Virus record (IMG/VR): IMGVR_UViG_3300013121_000031
Location: 1-64,000 of that record
Direction: 5' to 3' (one strand)
DNA length: 64,000 bases
DNA from: a virus
Taxonomy: Duplodnaviria > Caudoviricetes
Made by a program: the position numbers and the translations under genes. Below are positions 3,943 to 28,290 of this stretch, piece after piece; the first letter of the stretch is position 1; each line of letters begins with the position of its first letter. Below the pieces are notes generated by a model. The model did not search any database, was not told the DNA's origin, and saw only the letters and a program-made list of their open reading frames with translations.

Positions 3943-5914
3943 AGACTTCAAATGCTATGAAAAGCTTGATCTAAGTTTCAAAGACACAAATGGTCTTTTC
4001 TTGTTAACTGGTGAAAATCACCAAAATATGTCACTAGGAACTAATGGAGTTGGAAAATCAACAATATTAGATGCTATTTGTTGGGCTTTATATGAAAAAA
4101 CAGCCAAAGGGATAAAAGCAAGCAAATTACTTCGTCGAGGCACACAAGCTGAAGGGTATGTGGTCAAATTACATTTTGATGAATTTGAGATTGAAAGAAG
4201 TTGGCATCCAAACTATGTGACTTTGAATGGCAAGGTTGTTTCAGAAGAACAATTAGTTCAAAAAATTGGTCTAACTTATGAGCAGTTTCTTTTCACTATT
4301 TATTTTCAGCAAAACAGCACACATTTTGTTGATTTATCAGCCACCGAGAAGCTTGCATTCTTATCGGATGTGTTTGATTTGAATATTTGGCTTGATCATG
4401 CTGAAGTTTGTAAAGCTCAAGTTGATTCATTACAAATTGTCTCAGCAAGCTTGCTTAGCAAAGCTGAAGTGGTTTCATTGCATATAGCTGACCTTGTTGC
4501 TGAAACTGAAAGAATCCAGATGCTTAAGGAGAACTGGGAGCAAGAAAGATTAGGGCAGCGAAAAGTCATAGAGACAAATTTAGAAGAAATCACAAACCAA
4601 ATGAATAAATGGGAGAGTGATGCTTTTGCAAAAAGAGCTGAGAAAGTTAAACAGCTTGATCAGTTAAAGGCGCAAGTTAAAGAAGTTGATTGCAAAGGAC
4701 TTGAAGAATCGGCTGAATTAGTTAGACAAGCTGTTGAACAAACAAAAAATCAACTAGACACTCAAGTCAAGCTCTCTAATCAAAAACAATTAGAATTGAT
4801 GTCGATTAAAACAACAATTTCTAACAAGACCGAACAGATTTCAAATTTGCAATCAATAGCTCAATGCCCAACCTGCGAACAAGTGGTCAGTGATGATCAC
4901 AAATCTATGCTTTTGACTCAAATCAATGAACAAATAAAAGTATTAGATAGTGAAACTAAAACTATTAATGAGCAGATAACTGCTTATGCGATTGTCACTA
5001 CTGAAAAAACACAACTTCTACAAGATTTATATGATAAAAATTCTCGTTTACTTACAATGCTTGGTGACGCCAAGGCTGAGCAAGAGAAGCAAAACTCAAT
5101 AAATCAACAAATTAATGAAATTGAACAAAATCTATCAGCGGTTCAAGAAGGAAATCCATACACCACTCAACATGCACAATTAGTAGCTCAATTGTCGCAA
5201 TTTGATGTGACATTTGCCAACCCATATGACCCGGAGCTAGTCAAAATCGCTGAAAAGCATGAAAATGAAAAAACCAAGCATACTGAGTTTATTGAAGCAA
5301 AAAGAGTAAATGATGAAGTTCTTGGTAAATACATGTTTTGGAAAACACAATTTCCATTAATTCGTCTAGCAATTCTCGATGATATTACTGAAGACATTGA
5401 AATTCATTTCAATCAAGCACTTGCAGCCGTTGGATTATTTGATTGGTCAGTCAAAGTAGCAACTGATCGGGCTTTGAAATCTAATAAAAAGGCAGTAAGA
5501 AAAGAATTGAATATTCAATTATTCAATAACCAAGGAGTTGAAATAGAGATTGATACAATTTCTGGCGGAGAAATGCAGAGAATTAGGATTGCTAGTGCAA
5601 TAGGCATTAGTGAAATGATCAAAGCTAGATTAGGCGTTAATTGGAATCTTCAATTATGGGATGAGCCAAGTCTTGGCTTATCAGGTGAAGGAATTTCAAA
5701 TATGCTTGAATTCTTCAAAATGCTGTCAGAATCAGTAGAAGTGTTTGTTGCTGACCATAGGGTGCAAAATTTGGTCAAATTCGATAAGATATTTAATATT
5801 ATCAAGCGACCCACAGGCTGCTCTACCATTGATGAAATTGTGAATGAAGTTGATTCAATGGCTCACACTGATAATATGAGTATTAAAGAGCTGCAAAAAC
5901 TAACCATGCAATGA
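3917..5914 (+). CDS. Rad50/SbcC-like ATPase (gp46-like)
   Basis: Walker A NGVGKS, coiled coils, Zn-hook CPTCEQ, signature SGGE, Walker B LWDEP. Confidence 0.92.
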   Translation: MKLKRIELRDFKCYEKLDLSFKDTNGLFLLTGENHQNMSLGTNGVGKSTILDAICWALYEKTAKGIKASKLLRRGTQAEGYVVKLHFDEFEIERSWHPNYVTLNGKVVSEEQLVQKIGLTYEQFLFTIYFQQNSTHFVDLSATEKLAFLSDVFDLNIWLDHAEVCKAQVDSLQIVSASLLSKAEVVSLHIADLVAETERIQMLKENWEQERLGQRKVIETNLEEITNQMNKWESDAFAKRAEKVKQLDQLKAQVKEVDCKGLEESAELVRQAVEQTKNQLDTQVKLSNQKQLELMSIKTTISNKTEQISNLQSIAQCPTCEQVVSDDHKSMLLTQINEQIKVLDSETKTINEQITAYAIVTTEKTQLLQDLYDKNSRLLTMLGDAKAEQEKQNSINQQINEIEQNLSAVQEGNPYTTQHAQLVAQLSQFDVTFANPYDPELVKIAEKHENEKTKHTEFIEAKRVNDEVLGKYMFWKTQFPLIRLAILDDITEDIEIHFNQALAAVGLFDWSVKVATDRALKSNKKAVRKELNIQLFNNQGVEIEIDTISGGEMQRIRIASAIGISEMIKARLGVNWNLQLWDEPSLGLSGEGISNMLEFFKMLSESVEVFVADHRVQNLVKFDKIFNIIKRPTGCSTIDEIVNEVDSMAHTDNMSIKELQKLTMQ

Positions 5915-8071: not shown

Positions 8072-8833
8072 ATGGGGAGACACTACATATCAGTTCAAAT
8101 TCCTGTGGTAACTGAAGAATATGGTACTTTGTACGATAATGAATTATTTGCAATCCATACAATTTCTCCAAAACTAACAGTTGAAGAAACACTACATGCA
8201 ATTCGTCATTATGGTTTTGCAGAACTTCCAAAAGGCACAATAATCAAAACCACAGCAGATATTCAAGTTATCACTAGCTATCACGCTGAAGAATTTTTAA
8301 AAAATGCAATTGAGTTTAATAAAGATCAATTAGCAATCATGTCAGAAGAGGGGGCTGATGATGAATCTTTGCTTGTTACTGAAAAATTGCAGTTCAATTT
8401 AGATGGATTGAACAGTTGGCAAAGCTACAAGCAAAGAAAAGAAGACATAAAACAAATTGATCGAGACAATATGATCAAGGCTGGTGTTGATAGTGTTTGC
8501 GAACCTTGCGTAATGAAAGAACGCAATAAATTTGAAATTGACACATTAATACATGATCTTTGTTATATGATCAAAAATGTCAAATGCTCTCGTGTTGAAA
8601 ACAACAAACTTCAAGGGCATACTGAAGAGTATCAAGAATCGCTAGAAACAAGTAGTTTTGACAACATCTTAGGGTCTCTTCAAAAACAATTGCAGCAATT
8701 TCTTTTAGACTTGCTTAGCAGTGACGAACAAGCCGATAAAGAAGAAAATGAACAACAAAAACTCACTGGTGATGAAAAACTTTGTGAAGATTGCGGAGGA
8801 GTGATTCTTCCCGATGAGGAGCCTCATTCATGA
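8072..8833 (+). CDS. Hypothetical protein
   Basis: TAAGGAG before ATG 8072. Confidence 0.6.
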   Translation: MGRHYISVQIPVVTEEYGTLYDNELFAIHTISPKLTVEETLHAIRHYGFAELPKGTIIKTTADIQVITSYHAEEFLKNAIEFNKDQLAIMSEEGADDESLLVTEKLQFNLDGLNSWQSYKQRKEDIKQIDRDNMIKAGVDSVCEPCVMKERNKFEIDTLIHDLCYMIKNVKCSRVENNKLQGHTEEYQESLETSSFDNILGSLQKQLQQFLLDLLSSDEQADKEENEQQKLTGDEKLCEDCGGVILPDEEPHS

Positions 8834-9537
8834 AAAATCAATTGGCTCCTATGCTTCCTATGATAAAACAAGCATTTAAACAACTAAATGCTGAGAATAT
8901 TGCTACGGCTCAAAATTTTTCATGCTGTGGTACTTGTGCTCGATCTGAATTAAAAGAGAAGCTGTCAACTGATAAAAATTCAAAGAAAAACTATATTGGG
9001 TATGTTTTTTGGCACAACCAAGCACATGATTCAGCTAAAAGAACCGGGGAGTTGAGTTTGAGTCATCAACCCTTTGTTCAAGATGATGACTTGTCAGAAA
9101 AGACTTATAACAATCTTTGCCAGAAAGTTGCAGATGCTATATATGATGCCTTGTTTGATTCTGGGTTATGCGTTTTATGGAATGGTGACCCGTTTAATAC
9201 CATTACCGTAATGACTAAAGAGCAGGGTAAACAAAAGGCCACTGAAATTGATAACAAAATCACACAAGCATTGAGTAATAAAACTGATGAAGATTTTCTT
9301 CCAAAGTCATATCCAGGGCTACTTTATGATCTCACACAAAGAGAAATGCTTGAGTTGTTTTTTACTTGTGCATATGCAAAAGATGCTCGAAATGAGATGA
9401 AAGACCGAATGAAATTTGTCTATAAATTTGCCAACCAGATTCGTAAACAAGACCAAAGACGAATGAAAAAATTGATGGCAGATACAAGAAGAATGTTAGA
9501 CAGATTAAACAAGAAAGTCAGTCAAAAAACATCATAA
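8830..9537 (+). CDS. DUF6891-like protein
   Basis: NFSCCGTCA..E, GYVFWHNQ, GLCVLWNG..TITV. Confidence 0.55.
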   Translation: MKNQLAPMLPMIKQAFKQLNAENIATAQNFSCCGTCARSELKEKLSTDKNSKKNYIGYVFWHNQAHDSAKRTGELSLSHQPFVQDDDLSEKTYNNLCQKVADAIYDALFDSGLCVLWNGDPFNTITVMTKEQGKQKATEIDNKITQALSNKTDEDFLPKSYPGLLYDLTQREMLELFFTCAYAKDARNEMKDRMKFVYKFANQIRKQDQRRMKKLMADTRRMLDRLNKKVSQKTS

Positions 9538-14479: not shown

Positions 14480-14848
14480 ATGAGCTTCATTACTGCATTG
14501 GTTTTGATAGGTAGCTGTCTAATTATTGGTTTCTTGTGCGGATACTTGGGACACGTGATTGTTAATAAACAAGAAAAAGACCCTTTTGTTATTCAAGAGC
14601 TTGAGGAAAGGCTGAAATACCTTTTGCGGTACATAGATGGCATTGAAAATGAGTTGAAGGAGGAGATATCACTTAGACACCACGAAAAGTCGACAGCAGA
14701 AGCTGAATTTTATAATACTATCTACAAAGTAGAAACAGATATGCGAATAGGAACTGTAACACTACCAGAAGTCGAGGAATTCAATCGACAAGGAGAACGG
14801 CATGCTAGAAACCCCAATAAAACCAACAAAACCAAGAAAATCAGTTAA
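14480..14848 (+). CDS. Membrane-anchored coiled-coil protein
   Basis: N-terminal hydrophobic helix followed by a charged helix. Confidence 0.6.
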   Translation: MSFITALVLIGSCLIIGFLCGYLGHVIVNKQEKDPFVIQELEERLKYLLRYIDGIENELKEEISLRHHEKSTAEAEFYNTIYKVETDMRIGTVTLPEVEEFNRQGERHARNPNKTNKTKKIS

Positions 14849-15296
14849 AACTAAAACTAAATCAAGGGCAAAAAAGACAGATTTAGCCAAAAGAACTGAA
14901 AATGCGGCAAGAATGGCTGATATGAGAAATCAATATCAACAGACTCAAAATCAAGCAATCAATGAAGCTTTGAAAAAGAATGAAGAAACTTTTGCATTTA
15001 GATTTTTTGTCATCAATCAAGCTATGCAAGCCTTAGACGCTGGAGAGAGTGTTGAGCAAATCGCTCAAATCCATAAAATTCCAAAAGAATTGATTTTGAA
15101 ATGGATAGAAGACTTGAATAGTTTTGTCGGCAGTGACAAAGCTGAAAATCTAAAGCACACAAAACGAGTATTCGACCAAGGCTACCATGCAGCTCAAAAG
15201 GACATCCTATCAAAAATAGGAGATTCAGTTCTAACGCTTTTACAGGATGCCGCTCGTAAAGCTGTTCAAAATAGCAATGACGTTAAGAACAGTTAG
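14802..15296 (+). CDS. Putative HTH DNA-binding protein
   Basis: Basic N-terminus; GESVEQIAQIHKIPKELILKWI. Confidence 0.5.
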   Translation: MLETPIKPTKPRKSVKTKTKSRAKKTDLAKRTENAARMADMRNQYQQTQNQAINEALKKNEETFAFRFFVINQAMQALDAGESVEQIAQIHKIPKELILKWIEDLNSFVGSDKAENLKHTKRVFDQGYHAAQKDILSKIGDSVLTLLQDAARKAVQNSNDVKNS

Positions 15297-18394: not shown

Positions 18395-18468
18395 GCGAAA
18401 TTCGTCTAGTGGAAAGACAATAGCCTTCCAAGCTACTAACATCAGTTCGAATCCGACATGGGGCTCCA
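18395..18468 (+). tRNA. tRNA-Gly(TCC), degenerate stems (possible pseudo-tRNA)
   Basis: Loops and U73-CCA intact; 3 acceptor, 2 T-stem and 1 anticodon-stem mismatches. Confidence 0.6.
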
Positions 18469-20230: not shown

Positions 20231-20304
20231 TGACGGGTAGCCTAATGGCAAGGCAATAGACTTTGAATCTACTGACGGAAGTTCGATTCTTCCCCCGTCA
20301 TCCA
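20231..20304 (+). tRNA. tRNA-Gln(TTG)
   Basis: Cloverleaf, U1-A72, CCA. Confidence 0.88.
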
Positions 20305-20320
20305 CTTATAAGGATTTTGA

Positions 20321-20458
20321 ATGAAAACAAAGCGCTTATTTTATGAATTGTTGTGTTGGATTATTATTCCTCTAATAATTGCGCATTCGACTCATGATTG
20401 GTCAAATGCGCTTTGTTGGTATATTGGAGTTCTTGTTGCTAGATTTCTCAAAATTTGA
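20321..20458 (+). CDS. 45-aa membrane protein (not in ORF track)
   Basis: TAAGGA SD; MKTKRLFYELLCWIIIPLIIAHSTHDWSNALCWYIGVLVARFLKI. Confidence 0.5.
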   Translation: MKTKRLFYELLCWIIIPLIIAHSTHDWSNALCWYIGVLVARFLKI

Positions 20459-20469
20459 GATGTGTCGAT

Positions 20470-20661
20470 CTAATCGACAAATAATTTAGCTCTTACTGCA
20501 CAATCCTTGGATTCGAGCAATTTACGCAAAGCAACAGTCTTTTCAGGGTTATCTGGAAGTGAGGTGTTGATGTGCTCAGCCAACTCACAAAATGGTTTCG
20601 AAACTTCTTGCAAGTGTGTTGGAAGATGTTTGTACTCGAAAAATTGCATTAATTTGTTCAT
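20470..20661 (-). CDS. Small conserved phage protein, possibly Acb2/Tad1-like
   Basis: FFEYKHLP..LQEVSKPF..LA...LP..PEKTVALRKLLESKDCAVRA. Confidence 0.5.
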   Translation of the reverse strand: MNKLMQFFEYKHLPTHLQEVSKPFCELAEHINTSLPDNPEKTVALRKLLESKDCAVRAKLFVD

Positions 20662-20670
20662 TCAAAGCTC

Positions 20671-21279
20671 CTATTTTTTGATCATTTCTAAGAATTCAGC
20701 CCTGACTTCAGCTTTCCTCATATCCCCGAGCAATGCTGAAGTGACCATAATTGTATTATTCTTTTGGATTCCTCTACAACTCATGCACTGATGGTGAGCT
20801 TCAATTACAACCCCAACACCAAGAGGACGAACGATTTGGTTGAAGGAACGAGCAATCTCTTGAGTCATTCTTTCTTGCACTTGCAGACGTTTTGCAAAGC
20901 ATTCGGCAAGTCTGGCTAGTTTTGATAAACCAACGATTCTATCTTTTGGTATGTATCCAATATGAACAACCCCTCTAAAAGGCAGCATATGATGCTCGCA
21001 CATGCTTGTGAATTCAATATCACGCAAAATCACCATTTGATCGTATTTTTCAGCATTAAAATGTGCTGATAGTATTTCTTTAGGGTTTTGTCGATATCCA
21101 GCAGTCATTTCAAATAAAGCTTTGACTACTCTAGAAGGAGTTTTCTGCAATCCTTCTCTATTAACATCCTCACCAATACCCCTTATTAAGGTAGAGACTG
21201 CATCTAAAAGATGAACATCATCAACTGAAGCTGGTTGTCTAAAATTTGAAACTTTTACTGCCTTATTTCTTGCTGCCAT
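20671..21279 (-). CDS. folE: GTP cyclohydrolase I
   Basis: REGLQKTPSRV, SMCEHH, GLSKLAR, RLQVQER, HQCMSCRG. Confidence 0.96.
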   Translation of the reverse strand: MAARNKAVKVSNFRQPASVDDVHLLDAVSTLIRGIGEDVNREGLQKTPSRVVKALFEMTAGYRQNPKEILSAHFNAEKYDQMVILRDIEFTSMCEHHMLPFRGVVHIGYIPKDRIVGLSKLARLAECFAKRLQVQERMTQEIARSFNQIVRPLGVGVVIEAHHQCMSCRGIQKNNTIMVTSALLGDMRKAEVRAEFLEMIKK

Positions 21280-21891
21280 TTATCTTACCTGCCATGTTTT
21301 GTGATTTTGCACTGATAATCTCCACTCAGGATTTTCTAAACATAACTTGATGCACCAATCGAGCGTATCTCTATCAAGTCCATGCCCAGAAAATGCGGGG
21401 GAGATGTATTTGAGTTCAGCAGTAACCGCAGGAACAGGGATTCCTTGGCCTTGTGCTCGAACATATTTAACTTCGGTGGCTGTTAATTGCTTAATTGCAT
21501 GCTCAGCCACTTTAGGACTGATCGTAATCCAATCAAGGTTCTTTGGTAATTCAATTGACCCATTGCTTTCTATGGCAATTTTGTATCCATATTGATGAAA
21601 ATGCCAGATAAACTGGTCATCAACTTGCAAACCGGGCTCACCACCAGTCAAAACCAACCATTGACAGTTATATTTGGCTACCTCATTATGAATTTCAGCC
21701 AAAGTGAGCATTCTGCCTGAAGCAAATTCAGTGTCACAAGCAAAACCACCAGGGGATTTTGGCCCTGGAGCGATATCACAAGCCATATTACACCCACGAA
21801 AGCGAATAAAAATAGATGGTTCACCAGCCCGCCCTCCTTCACCCTGAAGGCTATAAAATATTTCCGACACCCAATATTCATTTTTACTCAT
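21280..21891 (-). CDS. queE: 7-carboxy-7-deazaguanine synthase (radical SAM)
   Basis: EIFYSLQGEG, FIRF.GCN..C..CDT with extended Cys spacing, LTGGEP, SPK, WRLSVQNHK. Confidence 0.93.
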   Translation of the reverse strand: MSKNEYWVSEIFYSLQGEGGRAGEPSIFIRFRGCNMACDIAPGPKSPGGFACDTEFASGRMLTLAEIHNEVAKYNCQWLVLTGGEPGLQVDDQFIWHFHQYGYKIAIESNGSIELPKNLDWITISPKVAEHAIKQLTATEVKYVRAQGQGIPVPAVTAELKYISPAFSGHGLDRDTLDWCIKLCLENPEWRLSVQNHKTWQVR

Positions 21892-22514
21892 GCCTTTTTA
21901 TTTCTCCATGCAAGTCGTTTAGCAATAGTCTCTGGTGATTGTTTCTTTCCAAGTTTAGCTTGTCTCAATTTCTCTTTATGCTCTTCAGTCAATTTTTTAC
22001 CAGAATGAGCTTTTGAAATTGCTGCTTTCGCTTCTTCTGTATGCACTGGGCCTTTCTTCTTTATCCCAAGTAATCGTTTCTGCTCCCAAGCTCTTTTATT
22101 TGCCTCACTTCTAGCTTTTACCGCTTCTGGTGTGGCTTTAATAGACATTCCAGTTCTCGTCTTTTTATAACTCTCACGTTGTTGACCTGTCCATGGTTTA
22201 CCTAATCTTCCATAAGTTGCTCCTCCTTCCCCACCATCAGTAAAATTAGTTAAATCATTTCCTAATTCCCTGTAATGCTTAATCCACCAACGTTCTCGTT
22301 CTTCCCATACTGATTCATCTACATTTTCAAGAGTAATAACTATTGGCCGCAAACCTATTTTCATTAGACTGTTAAGCCATTGAGCACGATGAGTCTTCCC
22401 ATCTAATGCAGCAGGGCAAAGGTGATTTTGGATTCGGTGTTTTAAATTTTGAGCTTTACCTACATAACGAATTACATTAGTTCTTGGGTCAGCAAGCCCA
22501 TAAATTGTAATCAT
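21888..22514 (-). mobile_element. Free-standing GIY-YIG homing endonuclease with NUMOD3-like repeats
   Basis: TIYGL.DPR...RYVGK, ERWWI, LTN.TDGGEG, HTEEAKAAIS/LTEEHKEKLR/QSPETIAK; lies between queD and queE. Confidence 0.85.
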
Positions 22515-22523
22515 TTCAGTCTC

Positions 22524-22958
22524 CTAATTGTGAGCTTCATAAGTCGCATAACAATTGTCAGTCTCATATAAGACTATTTTGGTGACTTCGATGTCATATG
22601 AAGCCAATAGAGTATTTGATAGCTCAAATAAGAATTGACACATTGATTCAGCCGTTGGATTTTGGTCCATGTAGAACAACTTAATTGGCAATCCGGCTTT
22701 TAGTAAGCTTTCCATTGCTTCTCTAGTCTGGGTATCATTCACATTTAAAATAAGCCCATGATCCCAGTTTCGATCAATCCAATTTCCAATTTTATCTTTG
22801 ATAACTGAGAAATCAATTACTCTTCCAACTGTGTCTAAGTTGCCTATACATGTTATGTGCGCTGAGTAATTATGCCCATGCAATTGAGCACACTTAGATT
22901 CATGCCCAACAAGTCTATGCCCAGCGCAAAAATTTAAAATTCTAGTGCAAGTAGTCAA
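22524..22958 (-). CDS. queD: 6-carboxytetrahydropterin synthase
   Basis: FCAGHRL..C..LHGHNY, DF, WDH, NPTAE, YET. Confidence 0.93.
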   Translation of the reverse strand: MTTCTRILNFCAGHRLVGHESKCAQLHGHNYSAHITCIGNLDTVGRVIDFSVIKDKIGNWIDRNWDHGLILNVNDTQTREAMESLLKAGLPIKLFYMDQNPTAESMCQFLFELSNTLLASYDIEVTKIVLYETDNCYATYEAHN

Positions 22959-22959
22959 T

Positions 22960-23652
22960 TTATTTGCTCCCTAATAAAACTTGGATTGGTGTATTGTCCT
23001 CATAAACAGTAGGGTCGGTGGTACCGCTTAGATAAAATGCTTCTCTACGTTCAACACATGTCCCACACTTGCCACAATGAATCTCTCCTCCTTTATAACA
23101 ACTCCAAGTTAACTCAAAAGGAACTTTATCAAAGAATCCAATTGCAGCTATTTCGGCTTTTGAGCGATTTGCAAAAGGAGCGAGTAATTTAATTGGAGTG
23201 TAGTGACAAAGTTGCATAGCTTTATCAAGTTGTTCTATAAACATTTCTCGACAATCTGGGTAGATTGCGTGATCTCCTGCGTGTGCTGCATATGCCACAA
23301 AATTCATATCATGTGAAATTGCGTATGCAGTTGCCACTGAGAGCATAATCATGTTTCTGTTAGGAACAACAGTGGCCTTCATGTTGTCCTCAGCATAATG
23401 ACCTTCAGGGACATCGATATCATCAGTTTGACTATTGTTTTTCAAAACAACCGATTTAAGCACACCTAAATCAACAACATCATAAGGAACCCCAGCCCAA
23501 TCAGCGATTAATTTGGCCGCTTGAAGTTCCTTAGCGTGTCTCTGCCCATAGTGAACCCCCAATGCTCTTATTTCGTATTGGTCTTTTTGTAAAACTTTGA
23601 GTAGAGTAGATGAATCCATTCCACCACTTAAAAGAACTACAGCTCTTTTCAT
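22960..23652 (-). CDS. queC: 7-cyano-7-deazaguanine synthase
   Basis: LLSGGMDS, YGQRH, VPNRN, YPDCR, TWSCY..HCGKCGTC. Confidence 0.96.
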   Translation of the reverse strand: MKRAVVLLSGGMDSSTLLKVLQKDQYEIRALGVHYGQRHAKELQAAKLIADWAGVPYDVVDLGVLKSVVLKNNSQTDDIDVPEGHYAEDNMKATVVPNRNMIMLSVATAYAISHDMNFVAYAAHAGDHAIYPDCREMFIEQLDKAMQLCHYTPIKLLAPFANRSKAEIAAIGFFDKVPFELTWSCYKGGEIHCGKCGTCVERREAFYLSGTTDPTVYEDNTPIQVLLGSK

Positions 23653-24524
23653 TGATCTTCCCCCGCTTGACTGTATATGTAGCTAGTTACTTCGTAATTT
23701 GGGTAATGTTCTTTAAAAGCTGTGAGATTTTTATTTAAACCAAATCCACAATTTAATGATTTAAACCCTTGTACGTACAAATTTTTCAAAGCCAATGTGT
23801 CAGCATAATTCATTAATTGAGAGAATGAGTCCCAACTGTTTCCAAAATTGGCTAAATCATATGTTCTTCTTTGGTCAATTCCAACAATACGAGTGGCAAG
23901 AACTTTTCCACCAAATTTGAATACGAATGTTTTGAATAATCGTGGGTATTGCAATGCCTTTTGGCAACAGAATAAGTATTTTTTGTTCGGGAACATGATC
24001 TTGAAGATCTTTGGGTCAGCAAGCTTATAATCAACCCACATATCATGCAATTCTTGCACTCCAGCGAAGTTTTCTTTGCTCAAGCTCTCAACACTAACCC
24101 CCCACTTTTCTAATTGGGTAATTGGATAAGTAAGACGCTGATGTCTTTTCTTGGCATTTTTATATGATGCTGGATTGTTGACTTGCTCTAAGTCATAAGC
24201 AATTTCTACAAAAGGTTTTCCATCGTCTAATTGCTGCAACTTGTCTATAGAATAGACTGGTCCAAGGCTTCTAAGATACTCAAGCATGTTTTTACTGTTT
24301 TCTGGTTCTTGATAGACAAAAGTTTTAAATCTACCTTGCTTATTCGGCAATACAAGAACTGAATTTTTTAAAAGCAACGGAGGGGTCTTAGAAGCCAACA
24401 TTTCATTTAAATAAAAATATGTGACCAATGTTGTCACTGAAAAATTATGAACGCCCTTATTATCCAATTGGTATAAATTGGAAATATTGGTTTCAAACTT
24501 CTTCAGTGGCATCAATTTATTCAT
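23649..24524 (-). CDS. DUF2156/LPG-synthase-C-like GNAT-fold transferase (putative)
   Basis: [44 protein letters not shown]; probable ATG 24524 overlaps the queF stop. Confidence 0.5.
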
Positions 24525-24942
24525 TTGCGTAGTTATTAAATACTTTGATTGGATTGATTGAAATGCCACCTCTAGGAAAGAAATCTCCCTTGACACTAAT
24601 CCATTTTGGTTTCAATAAATTATTTAAGTCATTCGCAATCGTGTTGATCACCTCTTCATGGAAAGATCCATGATTTCTAAAACTGAATAAATACAGTTTC
24701 AATGATTTTGATTCAACAAGCCATTCATTTGGAGTGTACTCAATCACAATTTTGGCAAAATCTGGTTGTTTTGTTTTTGGACACAATGCAGTGAATTCAG
24801 GACATTCAAGTTGCACTACATAGCTATCAGTATCTTTGTTTGGAAACTTGTTTGCAAAGCGTTCCAATACTTGTGGAGCATATTCAGTAGGGTAATCTGT
24901 GTTCCCGGACCCAAGACTTTTAAGTTGTAATTCTTCTACCAT
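24517..24942 (-). CDS. queF: preQ0 reductase, type I
   Basis: [42 protein letters not shown]. Confidence 0.95.
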
Positions 24943-25823
24943 AATCCTTTATCCCTTCCTTCGTAAAAACAGTCAAACAAAAATTCAAGAACATAGTGAG
25001 GCATTGCACAAGCTAGAAAGATTTTGGTTCCATACATTCTTTCTAAATCAAGCGCTTGTTTTATCCGTGCATAATTGTTTATTCGATCAGCTGTATTTTT
25101 AATATCATGTTTTGATATCGAAGTCCTCCACGCATCAGATTTTCCAAGTTTTTTGACATCTTCCCACGTAGCTCCAACCTTCAGTAATTTATCAACAAGC
25201 TCCTTGTCCGGCTTTTCAATAAACTGATTTTTGTTAGCGTTAGTGATTCTCATTGTTTTTGGGTCATAAACAGCCATGTTCCCAAATCTTCGTAATGAAT
25301 TCCAACTTGAACTATCTACAGATTCTGGACGGTAGTATTTAACAAATGATGTATTAGTAAAGCCAAGCCAATGAACTCTTCGTTTGCCATTTTGGTTCAT
25401 AAACCATCTTAAATACGCATCGTTCTTTCCACCAATTGCAATTCCACCGAACATAATGTAGTCGGTGTAACTGTATAAATCTTCAAGTCTTGATGATGTT
25501 TCTCCACGAGTAAATACTGGCATTACGTCATACCCACGCTTATTCATGGTCAAGAAGTTTTGATATGACTGGTGAGGGTCTCCATACACATCAAGCTGAA
25601 CAGCATGAAAAGGTCTTAAATCTGAGATCGCATCTAGAAATCTGCAATACTCATCAAGATCAATCTGCAAGCCAGTATTCCAAGCTGAAAACGCCCCAGA
25701 ATCAACAATTAATCGATAATCTTCTTTAGGGGTCTTTCGTAAAAACTCTATCCAGTTCTCAGAAAAGTATGGATAAGCAATTAGAACGTTAAGCGGTTGT
25801 TTGCCTTTAACTAATTGTGACAT
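24936..25823 (-). CDS. TGT/DpdA-like 7-deazaguanine transglycosylase
   Basis: [32 protein letters not shown]; no C-terminal Zn site of the bacterial TGT type seen. Confidence 0.75.
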
Positions 25824-26388
25824 CGGTGATTTTAGCTCCGTCTATTGCTTTTCGCAGGAGTGTGACTAGCTCACCTTTTACGGACTGTTCACATTCCACG
25901 GTTATCTTGGCCTTTGCTTTGTCATCTGAAGGAACAACCTTCTCGACTTTTGAGATATCACTATCCCAATTTTCATCCATCATAATTGAAAGTTCATAAT
26001 CTGAGAACCCTAAGAGATTCAAATCATACTGCATTTCTTCAAGAGAGAGAATTTCATCTCTTAATAGCACTGCATCCCAATCAGCATTAAGAGCCAATTT
26101 ATTGTCAGCAATAACATAAGCTCTTTTTTGAGCCTCAGATAGTCCCTTTGCAACAATACAAGGAACTTCAGTTATCCCTAGTTTTTTAGCAGCTTGAGAG
26201 CGAGCATGCCCAGCCAAAATAATGTTTTTCTCGTCAATAAGAATTGGAGAAGTCCATCCAAATTCTTTTATTGAGTTGCAAACTTGTTCAATTTGCTCAG
26301 TCGTGTGAGTTCTTGAATTTTTACTATACGGTTTCAGTTCAGCCAAAGGCTTAGTAACTATCTGTAGCCGTTCTTTTGACACTTTCAT
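25807..26388 (-). CDS. ParB/Srx N-terminal domain protein
   Basis: LKPY.KNSRTH..QI..SIKEFGWTSPILID...AGH.R..AYVIADNKLA...WD. Confidence 0.88.
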   Translation of the reverse strand: MKVSKERLQIVTKPLAELKPYSKNSRTHTTEQIEQVCNSIKEFGWTSPILIDEKNIILAGHARSQAAKKLGITEVPCIVAKGLSEAQKRAYVIADNKLALNADWDAVLLRDEILSLEEMQYDLNLLGFSDYELSIMMDENWDSDISKVEKVVPSDDKAKAKITVECEQSVKGELVTLLRKAIDGAKITDVTIS

Positions 26389-27002
26389 TAATGCATCCCC
26401 ATCCACTCTTTGCATACTGTCACAAGAGCCTCAGATTCTGATAACTCAGCACCATCATGCTCTCTAACACGATTAATGGCACTCATAACAACCAAATACT
26501 GATTTTGACTTAAAAGAATGGCTTTGTCTTTCTTTCCATTTGGCATTCTTCTTGATTTTTTAGGAGCATCTTCTTCTTTTGGGTCGAGATTATCAATGCT
26601 CCAATCTTGATAAAGCAATGATTCAAGTTCAACTGGAGAGAATGATAGATTGAATATTTCAGTAGTAACATCAAGCTCCTTAAGCTCAATCTGCAAAGCT
26701 TCGGGGTTCCACATTGTTTTTTCAGAGATCTTATTATCTAAGATTCGATATTCACGAATTTGCTTTGGAGTTAAATTGTCTACTTTTACACAAGGAACTT
26801 CAGTAAGTTCTAGAAACTTGGCAGCCATCAATCTCGTATGCCCAACAATTACTTCATTATCAGGACCAGTGACTACTAAAGGTTGCTGCCATCCATATGA
26901 TTTAATTGACTCTGCTAATGCCTCGATTGCTGACATTGGGATTGAACGAGGATTGTTGTGGTAGGGAGTGATTTGATTAATATCGATCCAATTGATATTC
27001 AT
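26388..27002 (-). CDS. ParB/Srx N-terminal domain protein
   Basis: PYHNNPR..SIKSYGWQQPLVV..VGHTR..YRILDNK..E..WN. Confidence 0.88.
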   Translation of the reverse strand: MNINWIDINQITPYHNNPRSIPMSAIEALAESIKSYGWQQPLVVTGPDNEVIVGHTRLMAAKFLELTEVPCVKVDNLTPKQIREYRILDNKISEKTMWNPEALQIELKELDVTTEIFNLSFSPVELESLLYQDWSIDNLDPKEEDAPKKSRRMPNGKKDKAILLSQNQYLVVMSAINRVREHDGAELSESEALVTVCKEWMGMH

Positions 27003-27361
27003 TATTTGTCTCTCATCCAGTTAGGAGCATGTTTTTCAAGGTAGAACATAGCTGCTTCTAGTTTTTTGCTATCTACGTCTTTTCCTTGAATTGTTTGAAT
27101 AACAATTGCGGCGCACGATTGCTGAACTCTTGCCTTCCCGCGAACTATGGCCGTCTTAAATTGGGGGTCCTCAGCCATTCTTTGTTCAAATTCAGCAACC
27201 GTGCAATCTAAAAGAGCACATATAGAAGCTCGATCTAGCCTAGCCGCTCCAAATGTCTCTAATTGATTTATATATTTTTCGTCCAAAACTTCGGGAATTG
27301 CCGAAGTTGGAGTACTTGCCGCAACTATTTTTTTCTTAGTGTTACCAATGTTCTTCTTCAT
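27002..27361 (-). CDS. Terminase small subunit-like HTH protein
   Basis: ICALLDC..FKTAIVRGKA..AAMFYLEKHAPNW. Confidence 0.5.
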   Translation of the reverse strand: MKKNIGNTKKKIVAASTPTSAIPEVLDEKYINQLETFGAARLDRASICALLDCTVAEFEQRMAEDPQFKTAIVRGKARVQQSCAAIVIQTIQGKDVDSKKLEAAMFYLEKHAPNWMRDK

Positions 27362-27396
27362 AACGATATCTTATCACCAGTAACATTATTATTCAA

Positions 27397-27699
27397 TCAT
27401 GGTTTCCATAACGGGAAGTTAGATAGAAATCTTCGCTTCTCATGATAGATTCCTTCAGTAGCAACACAAGTCAAACCTAGATTGTCATCAGGCTCATCAT
27501 GAAATTCATATTTGATGTTCTTTAGTTTGAGTAGATCAATTACTTTTAAAAGAGCTTGTTTATCAGCTACTTGTAAAAGAACCAAATTGCACCCTTCAGG
27601 CAGAGCAAATGATTTTCCGGCTAAGGCACTTGCATGCGACACTTGGCACATAGCATCAGCATGACTTAGATCTTTTCTGACAAAAACGTAATAATACAT
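27397..27699 (-). CDS. Phage peptidyl-tRNA hydrolase (PTH2-like)
   Basis: YVFVRKDL...CQVSHA...LVLLQV...F.DEPD...LTCVAT...PLW; GGAGG at 27708-27712 before ATG 27699. Confidence 0.75.
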   Translation of the reverse strand: MYYYVFVRKDLSHADAMCQVSHASALAGKSFALPEGCNLVLLQVADKQALLKVIDLLKLKNIKYEFHDEPDDNLGLTCVATEGIYHEKRRFLSNFPLWKP

Positions 27700-27779
27700 A
27701 TAAAAATCCTCCATAAATGACTACGAAACAGAGTCATAAATGGAGGATCTTTATTTTGATTGTCGCAAATCTACGTCAT
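27666..27779 (-). promoter_or_regulatory. Leader ORF with amber codon 3, plus hairpin sequestering the pth SD
   Basis: ATG ACG TAG ATT TGC GAC AAT CAA AAT AAA GAT CCT CCA...TAA; hairpin 27700-27754. Confidence 0.65.
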
Positions 27780-27878
27780 TTTGTTACCGAACTTTTAAAA
27801 ATGGCCCCCCTCTTTACCTTTCGATATCGAGAGGGATAAATGTTGCGGGTGATTAGCTATTAACTTTTCACCCGCATA

Positions 27879-27957
27879 TGGTGCCTGAGACGAGGATCTA
27901 ACTCGCATATCTCCGGTTTAGAATCGGTACCTGCATCTATTTGAGGAACACTCAGGC
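27879..27957 (-). tRNA. Amber-anticodon tRNA (CTA), non-canonical
   Basis: Acceptor GCCTGAG/CTCAGGC-ACCA; CCG-ATTCTAAAC-CGG centred on CTA (27919-21); T-arm GCGAG-TTAGATC-CTCGT. Confidence 0.7.
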
Positions 27958-28007
27958 AAGTTCTAATGACTTAATTGAATCATGGCTAAATTTAATTGTC
28001 AAATTAG

Positions 28008-28058
28008 TTGATTACTTATAGTTTTCTATTATAATAGTATTGTAGTTAAGGAGAACGA
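28008..28058 (+). promoter_or_regulatory. Conserved early promoter plus RBS
   Basis: TTGATTACTTATAGTTTTCTATTATAATAGTATTGTAGTTAAGGAGAACG. Confidence 0.75.
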
Positions 28059-28062
28059 CGCA

Positions 28063-28290
28063 ATGACCAAACCAGAATTACAAGAACTTACTTTAATGCT
28101 TGATAAAGCCGCAAAAATTAAAGTACATCCAAAAGATAGAAGTTCAAAACGAGCCATAGAAGAATTTGAAGCTCTAAGTTATGCACTAAAAACTAATCCT
28201 GATCTATATACCAGTTCCAGTATGCACAAAGTATTAGTAAGCACAAAAAACCAAGTAGCAAAAGTTTTAAAAGATGCCGAAATCTCATAG
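28063..28290 (+). CDS. Hypothetical early protein
   Basis: First ORF after the promoter. Confidence 0.6.
   Translation: MTKPELQELTLMLDKAAKIKVHPKDRSSKRAIEEFEALSYALKTNPDLYTSSSMHKVLVSTKNQVAKVLKDAEIS

Follow-up and report, generated by a model that had tools for sequence, protein, structure and literature searches.

What is the function of a gene without recognizable annotation that lies between queF and queC in a viral operon for a 7-deazaguanine DNA base? The question is raised by the first 64,000 nucleotides (the window) of the IMG/VR virus record IMGVR_UViG_3300013121_000031, a complete virus genome of 111,345 bp with direct terminal repeats, in which eight tightly packed and overlapping open reading frames (ORFs) form an operon that runs on the minus strand from 25823 to 20671. 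The third of these, here called ORF-X, had been proposed in a preliminary description to transfer an amino acid from aminoacyl-tRNA to the amine of preQ1 (7-aminomethyl-7-deazaguanine), the base that enters phage DNA as dPreQ1, so that aminoacylated (or acylated) dPreQ1 would result. That interpretation is supported by the computational tests available, which draw on sequence comparison and structural models, and the aminoacyl-tRNA-dependent aminoacylation of the preQ1 aminomethyl group by ORF-X is assigned here a probability of roughly one half. The DNA of this phage probably carries an amino-acid-decorated base.

The preQ1 operon and its unannotated gene

FolE, QueD, QueE and QueC make preQ0, and QueF reduces preQ0 to preQ1. 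Genes for all five enzymes are present in the window, and the gene order given in the preliminary description stands as placed: dpdA-like, queF, ORF-X, queC, queD, a homing endonuclease gene, queE and folE (Table 1). The tight coupling was confirmed as well, the ATG of ORF-X overlapping the end of queF by 8 nucleotides and its stop overlapping the start of queC by 4. QueF scores 159 bits against TIGR03139 (cut-off 86.9), shares about 60% identity with its counterpart in Streptococcus phage Dp-1, and has both the catalytic-cysteine stretch and, as ESKSLKLY, the NADPH motif defined as E(S/L)K(S/A)hK(l/Y)(Y/F/W) (PMC10516641).

Phage DpdA enzymes that insert preQ1 have been documented (PMC10516641), and the first gene of the block is homologous to experimentally characterized phage or bacterial DpdA, not to the tRNA-guanine transglycosylase (TGT) Tgt. 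A Foldseek search of the modeled protein against the PDB returned generic TIM barrels only (E above 1e-3), and a wide VIA structure search brought up DpdA and TGT. By homology the enzyme is of the DNA (DpdA) type and not of the tRNA type, which bears on the earlier concern that a TGT-like protein at this position might act on tRNA alone. By the same homology it would exchange guanine for preQ1 in the phage DNA.

Fold, family and conserved residues of ORF-X

The AlphaFold2 model of ORF-X, built on an alignment of its family, has a predicted local distance difference test (pLDDT) score of 84 and a predicted template modeling (pTM) score of 0.81 and consists of two GNAT halves, the tandem fold of the DUF2156/Fem aminoacyl-tRNA transferases. 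The kinship with MprF, FemX and DUF2156 for which a fold search had been recommended is the one that the searches return. Foldseek against the PDB ranks at the top MprF/aminoacyl-phosphatidylglycerol synthase domains, the aminoacyl-tRNA-dependent peptide synthases Sbb17 and Sba18, the DUF2156 protein 2hqy and FemX (E 1e-9 to 1e-8); VIA likewise matches DUF2156, MprF-C, Sbb17 and FemX, and in the ESM Atlas the clusters closest to ORF-X are annotated with PF09924 or PF13480/FemAB. Tandem GNATs that use coenzyme A (CoA) rank behind, at about 12-12.9. At the level of sequence there is a weak but specific profile link: the 132-member family profile, searched against 177,635 PDB sequences, matched MprF/L-PGS chains only, with 4v36 the best, and individual members match PF09924 in seven of 132 cases (best E 5e-6) and PF13480 in five. 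There is good support for placing ORF-X in the wider DUF2156/Fem tandem-GNAT superfamily. The matches do not reach the curated cut-offs, and ORF-X is therefore not an established member of PF09924 proper.

The conserved residues of the family are consistent with this placement. The DUF2156/MprF-C-like motifs first noticed in the sequence, EIAYDL..KKRHQR, GKVLA and LNCG..L.AFK..YP, are present in the ORF-X translation and sit on the most conserved columns of the 132-member alignment, so they are not a matter of chance. The most conserved blocks are KKR (125-127) at the start of the helix that opens GNAT domain 2, N258-x-G260, and L267..F270-K271-x-H-x-P, in which K271, preceded by F270, is 99% conserved. 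Over the 132 members H26, E107, W163, K167, Y183, N258, G260 and K271 are conserved at 92-99%, and the family is basic, with a median isoelectric point of 9.1. Hallmarks of aminoacyl-tRNA transferases include a positively charged helix on one GNAT domain, which binds the tRNA acceptor stem (PMC6103681), and a lysine or arginine that polarizes the aminoacyl ester, as in F304-K305 of FemX and F328-K329 of DhpH (PMC12945691). ORF-X plausibly carries counterparts of both, the helix in the conserved SYxNxKKRxxR motif that opens domain-2 helix 124-141 and that HMMER aligns to GKKR..LR of L-PGS 4v36, and the lysine in K271. Searched against the PDB for the F-K motif, a small profile (A1) and a C-terminal-only profile (A7) gave chance matches only (follistatin, aprataxin), and a further profile (A3) reached the same central block only, at E 1.6.

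It is evident that the family is real, diverse and essentially metagenomic. A word-indexed search of 5.8 billion proteins recovered only five relatives of ORF-X, and a profile search run exhaustively over 1.84 billion cluster representatives recovered 175 at E <=1e-3, 87 of them at E <=1e-30. Comparison of ORF-X with 50,697 GenBank phages by tblastn gave no homologue, and a divergent member that is fused to a DpdA3 domain (P0074, described below) matched the same set through its DpdA3 half only. A scan of 185,579 prokaryote species, pattern-based and of limited sensitivity, gave no confirmed relative, and a related-locus search with the A6 subgroup of the family found nothing. One homologue (L028 3174-4511), of 445 amino acids with an N-terminal extension, translates correctly only if TGA is read as tryptophan, so that, on the evidence of this reading frame, the family is also carried by a recoded phage.

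A GNAT fold leaves room for a different donor. ORF-X could be an acyl-CoA-dependent N-acyltransferase, for example of acetyl groups, acting on the (d)PreQ1 aminomethyl group to yield acyl-dPreQ1, and there is a precedent for such chemistry in gp48 of phage PaMx11, a GNAT that uses acetyl-CoA to acetylate an aminomethyl base in DNA (PMC8989533). This alternative is considered unlikely in view of the fold searches, whose leading structural, Atlas and profile matches are all of the DUF2156/MprF/Fem class, and of the basic KKR helix and F-K motif, which are typical of aminoacyl-tRNA transferases. Acyl-CoA GNATs bind pyrophosphate through a Q/RxxGxG/A loop between beta4 and alpha3; this loop is absent from both GNAT domains of ORF-X and from the family consensus, the loop at that position in domain 1 reading QEPENSK. 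A classical Acetyltransf_1 GNAT moreover adjoins a family member in one locus (L029), suggesting that the two proteins have separate jobs.

Several observations, the PaMx11 precedent among them, weigh against transfer from aminoacyl-tRNA. ORF-X itself has no match in Pfam, PHROG or NCBIfam at permissive thresholds, including a Pfam E of 10, and the link of its family to PF09924 is remote, with a profile E of 0.0019 and single members below the Pfam gathering score. The predicted equivalence of K271 to the catalytic lysine or arginine of FemX and the aminoacyl-phosphatidylglycerol synthases concerns a segment that residue-level alignments stop short of. GenBank phage searches found no family member in a cultured phage. 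Finally, ARAGORN detects no tRNA gene adjoining ORF-X in 11 related loci, the three in L025 lying about 8 kb off.

A dedicated donor was also considered, in the form of a tRNA-like element at 27879-27957 on the minus strand with a 7-bp acceptor stem, a CCA end and CUA at the anticodon position. The idea was rejected because neither ARAGORN nor Rfam (E up to 1) finds the element, its fold has a z-score of only -1.6, and the related loci lend it no support. Elsewhere in the window, the tRNA block contains an extra weak Rfam tRNA match on the plus strand (18395-18465; 34 bits, E 6e-4) that ARAGORN does not report.

Linkage to QueF and DpdA and the proposed reaction

Co-occurrence with queF and dpdA across phages, suggested at the outset as a check on the assignment, is borne out. 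Exact-protein look-ups and pattern scans provided 16 distinct loci with usable context, which were annotated with phmmer/HMMER and Pfam. QueF is encoded in the same record as an ORF-X family gene in 15 of them, usually within a few genes and in the company of FolE, QueD, QueE, QueC and a DpdA of the DpdA1-like or DpdA3 kind; in L020, a record that is 90% complete, about 36 kb separate the que genes from the ORF-X member. PreQ1 is, to our knowledge, the sole product of the pathway that bears a nucleophilic side-chain amine, and the linkage of ORF-X to QueF specifically therefore points at the preQ1 amine as the acceptor. In one lineage the association is covalent: P0074 (586 amino acids; L017 10001-11761) is a natural fusion of an ORF-X domain with a DpdA3 domain. 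The DpdA3 part is homologous to proteins of the CP220 group and shares 56% identity with the 'DNA guanine transglycosylase' of Flavobacterium phage immuto_2-6A. At least two samples contain contigs with the identical fusion, near differing homing endonucleases, and in a sister lineage (L023 and L024) the ORF-X and DpdA3 reading frames overlap.

Association with DpdA could in principle reflect a role other than tailoring, with ORF-X serving as a non-catalytic accessory of DpdA, as a DNA-targeting subunit, or as a transferase to tRNA, protein or an envelope precursor. Many GNAT-fold proteins are indeed pseudo-enzymes, and a complex prediction for ORF-X with the window DpdA gave a score of 0.00, which speaks neither for nor against binding. 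Such roles are nevertheless judged highly improbable: the strong conservation of polar residues across 132 diverse members argues for catalysis, and the near-obligate partner is QueF, not merely DpdA or the preQ0 genes, which again directs attention to the preQ1 amine.

The family is not confined to deazaguanine clusters. P0140 (L029 6408-7280), a distant member related to ORF-X with an hhalign probability of 99.3% (E 6e-20), is encoded in a thymidine-hypermodification cluster based on 5-hydroxymethyldeoxyuridine (5-hmdU), together with a 5-hmdU DNA kinase (HMUDK), an ADDT/aGPT-Pplase3 amino-acid:DNA transferase, an intein-containing radical-SAM protein, the Acetyltransf_1 GNAT mentioned above and an N6/N4 methylase. 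Thymidine hypermodification proceeds step by step on the DNA polymer and gives rise to bases that bear amines (PMC8989533). This context suggests that the family also tailors thymidine-derived amines, and it broadens the likely role of the family, which would be to acylate aminoalkyl groups carried by modified DNA bases.

These observations can be combined into a scheme for the aminoacyl-tRNA-dependent reaction, in which the donor, the acceptor atom and the timing are all predicted. Once preQ1 had been made and inserted into the DNA, ORF-X would bind the acceptor end of an aminoacyl-tRNA, of host or phage origin, through the basic helix of domain 2; K271 would polarize the ester, and attack by the 7-aminomethyl nitrogen would yield amide-linked aminoacyl-dPreQ1, as fold, motifs and context suggest. 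Aminoacylation would most likely follow insertion and take place next to DpdA, and the resulting base would be expected to shield the DNA further from nucleases.

The same chemistry could also be carried out in a different order, ORF-X aminoacylating free preQ1 in the cytoplasm and DpdA then inserting aminoacyl-preQ1, and if so preQ1 would at the same time be kept from the host tRNA Tgt. The substrates of the characterized DUF2156/Fem enzymes are small molecules or lipids, DpdA enzymes are promiscuous for 7-substituents (PMC10516641), and the DpdA3 fusion is compatible with substrate channeling either way. However, the DpdA pocket would need room for a bulky aminoacyl group, the ORF-X family is strongly basic, and DpdM, a known dPreQ1-tailoring enzyme, is proposed to act on DNA (PMC10516641). 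A DNA-level acceptor is further favored because the thymidine pathway in which P0140 is found acts on the DNA polymer, and modification ahead of insertion is accordingly regarded as decidedly unlikely.

Neighboring genes and other candidate tailoring enzymes

Other candidate tailoring enzymes accompany ORF-X in many of the related loci. In ten of these a CxxCxxCC protein of 210-250 amino acids, which has the motif C-x(2-4)-C-x-x-C-C and matches PF03692 weakly, is encoded adjacent or close to ORF-X and is often translationally coupled to it (Table 1). PF03692 is the Pfam family of YkgJ, the Escherichia coli homologue named for DpdM by Cui et al. (2023; PMC10516641). The partner is not a close orthologue of the DpdM of phiSM or VH7D, given that the protein from L007 has no match among GenBank phages. 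On one contig (L001) a Formyl_trans_N (DpdN-like) gene at 14710-15282 occurs together with ORF-X, the CxxCxxCC protein, QueF and a DpdA3-like gene, and this phage may stack several tailoring steps. In the complete 111-kb genome of the window, Pfam detects neither PF03692 nor PF00551, and with a custom hidden Markov model built from the CxxCxxCC partners of ORF-X the best E is 0.68. Since that genome has no DpdM-like or formyltransferase gene by these searches, no candidate tailoring enzyme other than ORF-X was found in it, and ORF-X, from gene content, is evidently able to work alone; in the phages that have a CxxCxxCC enzyme, this enzyme may act on the product in turn, for instance through N-methylation of the new amine.

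A more general proposal, made tentatively and with a little less than even confidence, is that ORF-X founds a phage family that aminoacylates, from charged tRNA, the aminoalkyl groups of already-modified DNA bases, mostly dPreQ1 and in a distant branch a 5-hmdU-derived amine. The new amine would often be processed by a FliB/DpdM-like CxxCxxCC enzyme or a formyltransferase, and amino-acid-like or peptide-like bases would result.

Directly upstream of the window dpdA are two overlapping stand-alone ParB_N genes. Since bacterial DpdA requires the ParB-like ATPase DpdB (PMC10164549), this pair may, by analogy, be phage counterparts of DpdB. In two unrelated loci, L026 (1905-2720) and L027 (9288-9941), ParB_N genes likewise lie next to ORF-X or DpdA.

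Selfish elements repeatedly invade these modification clusters. In addition to the GIY-YIG endonuclease gene that separates queD from queE in the window, GIY-YIG genes are present in L017 (4964-5647 and 7788-8447), and inteins occur within QueF of L008 (11493-12974, HNH-bearing) and within the radical-SAM gene of L029 (1358-3502). The QueE ORF of L009 (1439-3061) is oversized. In L008 one ORF (8079-9023) joins FolE to a phosphoribosyltransferase domain, and in L027 a separate Pribosyltran gene (4225-4605) lies between queE and folE. Megablast of the 5.2-kb window block returned no match, and a promoter and terminator scan of 20300-28100 was uninformative, with fewer sites than in shuffled sequence.

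Table 1. Positions of the operon genes and adjoining genes in the window, and of the CxxCxxCC partner genes in related loci.
Feature	Record	Coordinates	Strand	Basis or remarks
DpdA-like DNA-guanine transglycosylase, 295 amino acids, first gene of the block	Window	24936..25823	minus	Homology to characterized DpdA
QueF, unimodular preQ0-to-preQ1 reductase, 141 amino acids	Window	24517..24942	minus	PF14489 E 5e-33; TIGR03139
ORF-X, putative tandem-GNAT transferase of DUF2156/Fem type, 291 amino acids	Window	23649..24524	minus	ATG at 24524; fold, profile, context
QueC, 7-cyano-7-deazaguanine synthase	Window	22960..23652	minus	PF06508 E 1.3e-59
QueD, 6-carboxytetrahydropterin synthase	Window	22524..22958	minus	PF01242 E 1e-27
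GIY-YIG/NUMOD3 homing endonuclease, between queD and queE	Window	21888..22514	minus	PF01541 E 1.5e-6; PF07460 E 1e-5
QueE, radical-SAM 7-carboxy-7-deazaguanine synthase	Window	21280..21891	minus	Weak Radical_SAM and Fer4_12; homologous to QueE of related clusters
FolE, GTP cyclohydrolase I	Window	20671..21279	minus	PF01227 E 2e-69
ParB_N gene	Window	25807-26415	minus	PF02195 E 6e-7; phrog_620
ParB_N gene	Window	26388-27002	minus	PF02195 E 2e-8; phrog_620
CxxCxxCC partner	L001	8619-9329		
CxxCxxCC partner	L002	1163-1819		
CxxCxxCC partner	L003			
CxxCxxCC partner	L004	1000-1677		
CxxCxxCC partner	L007	10891-11619		
CxxCxxCC partner	L008	10846-11496		
CxxCxxCC partner	L017	11763-12473		
CxxCxxCC partner	L019	10804-11451		
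CxxCxxCC partner	L024	13032-13670		
CxxCxxCC partner	L025	9139-9897		

Comparison with known systems

Eight 7-deazaguanine DNA bases are known, and decoration of the preQ1 amine is described for methyl (by DpdM) and formyl (by DpdN) only (Cui et al., 2023; PMC10516641), as the preliminary description had held. No paper that connects dPreQ1, or any other 7-deazaguanine DNA base, with aminoacyl-tRNA or DUF2156 was found in literature searches. If the proposal is correct, aminoacyl-dPreQ1 is a new natural DNA base, and amino-acid-like or peptide-like bases at guanine positions form a class not yet described. It would also explain a recurrent unannotated gene in the modification clusters of uncultured phages, would be relevant to phage evasion of restriction and of modification-dependent nucleases, and might offer an enzymatic route for attaching amino acids at defined deazaguanine positions in DNA.

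The idea that a charged tRNA can be the donor when DNA is modified is not new, since Mom of phage Mu uses Gly-tRNA to modify deoxyadenosine in double-stranded DNA, as reported in a paper that makes no mention of deazaguanines (PMC13219725). Mom thus resembles the proposal made here for ORF-X in being a GNAT-fold phage enzyme that draws on a charged tRNA to hypermodify a base within double-stranded DNA. It differs in being a single-domain GNAT dimer that acts on N6 of normal adenine with a rearrangement on the base, whereas ORF-X is a tandem GNAT of the DUF2156 type tied to a pre-installed aminomethyl-deazaguanine, and no sequence relation between the two was detected. ORF-X would provide the second case, after Mom, in which the charged tRNAs of translation are diverted to DNA modification, with a different architecture and by simple amide formation.

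Among the aminoacyl-tRNA transferases themselves, the C-terminal domain of MprF and the aminoacyl-phosphatidylglycerol synthases (DUF2156, PF09924) is matched by ORF-X only below Pfam thresholds. ORF-X is in addition soluble, has no flippase or membrane domain, and is encoded in phage DNA-modification operons; its predicted acceptor is a nucleobase amine, giving an amide, and theirs is a lipid hydroxyl, giving an ester. The double-GNAT architecture is shared with FemX/FemABX, Sbb17/Orf11, DhpH, PacB and VlmA. Fem-like transferases form an amide from aminoacyl-tRNA onto an amine of their substrate and have a lysine after a phenylalanine (K305 in FemX, K329 in DhpH; PMC12945691), for which ORF-X has F270-K271. 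Identity to them is about 10%, however, the Fem coiled-coil insert is missing from ORF-X, and the context of ORF-X is nucleic-acid modification, as opposed to the synthesis of peptidoglycan or antibiotics.

From the side of DNA modification, a close parallel to the proposed reaction is gp48 of PaMx11, a 5-aminomethyl-dU N-acetyltransferase that, as is suggested for ORF-X, is a GNAT and acylates the aminomethyl group of a modified base in DNA (PMC8989533). It differs in being a single-domain acetyl-CoA enzyme whose substrate is a thymidine derivative. DpdM, the CxxCxxCC methylation enzyme, and the formylating DpdN occupy the same place in the pathway as ORF-X and are likewise found in clusters with queF and dpdA (PMC10516641), but the fold of ORF-X is unrelated to theirs and its predicted product is neither methylated nor formylated dPreQ1. 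ORF-X would add a third class of dPreQ1-tailoring enzyme, structurally unrelated to these two.

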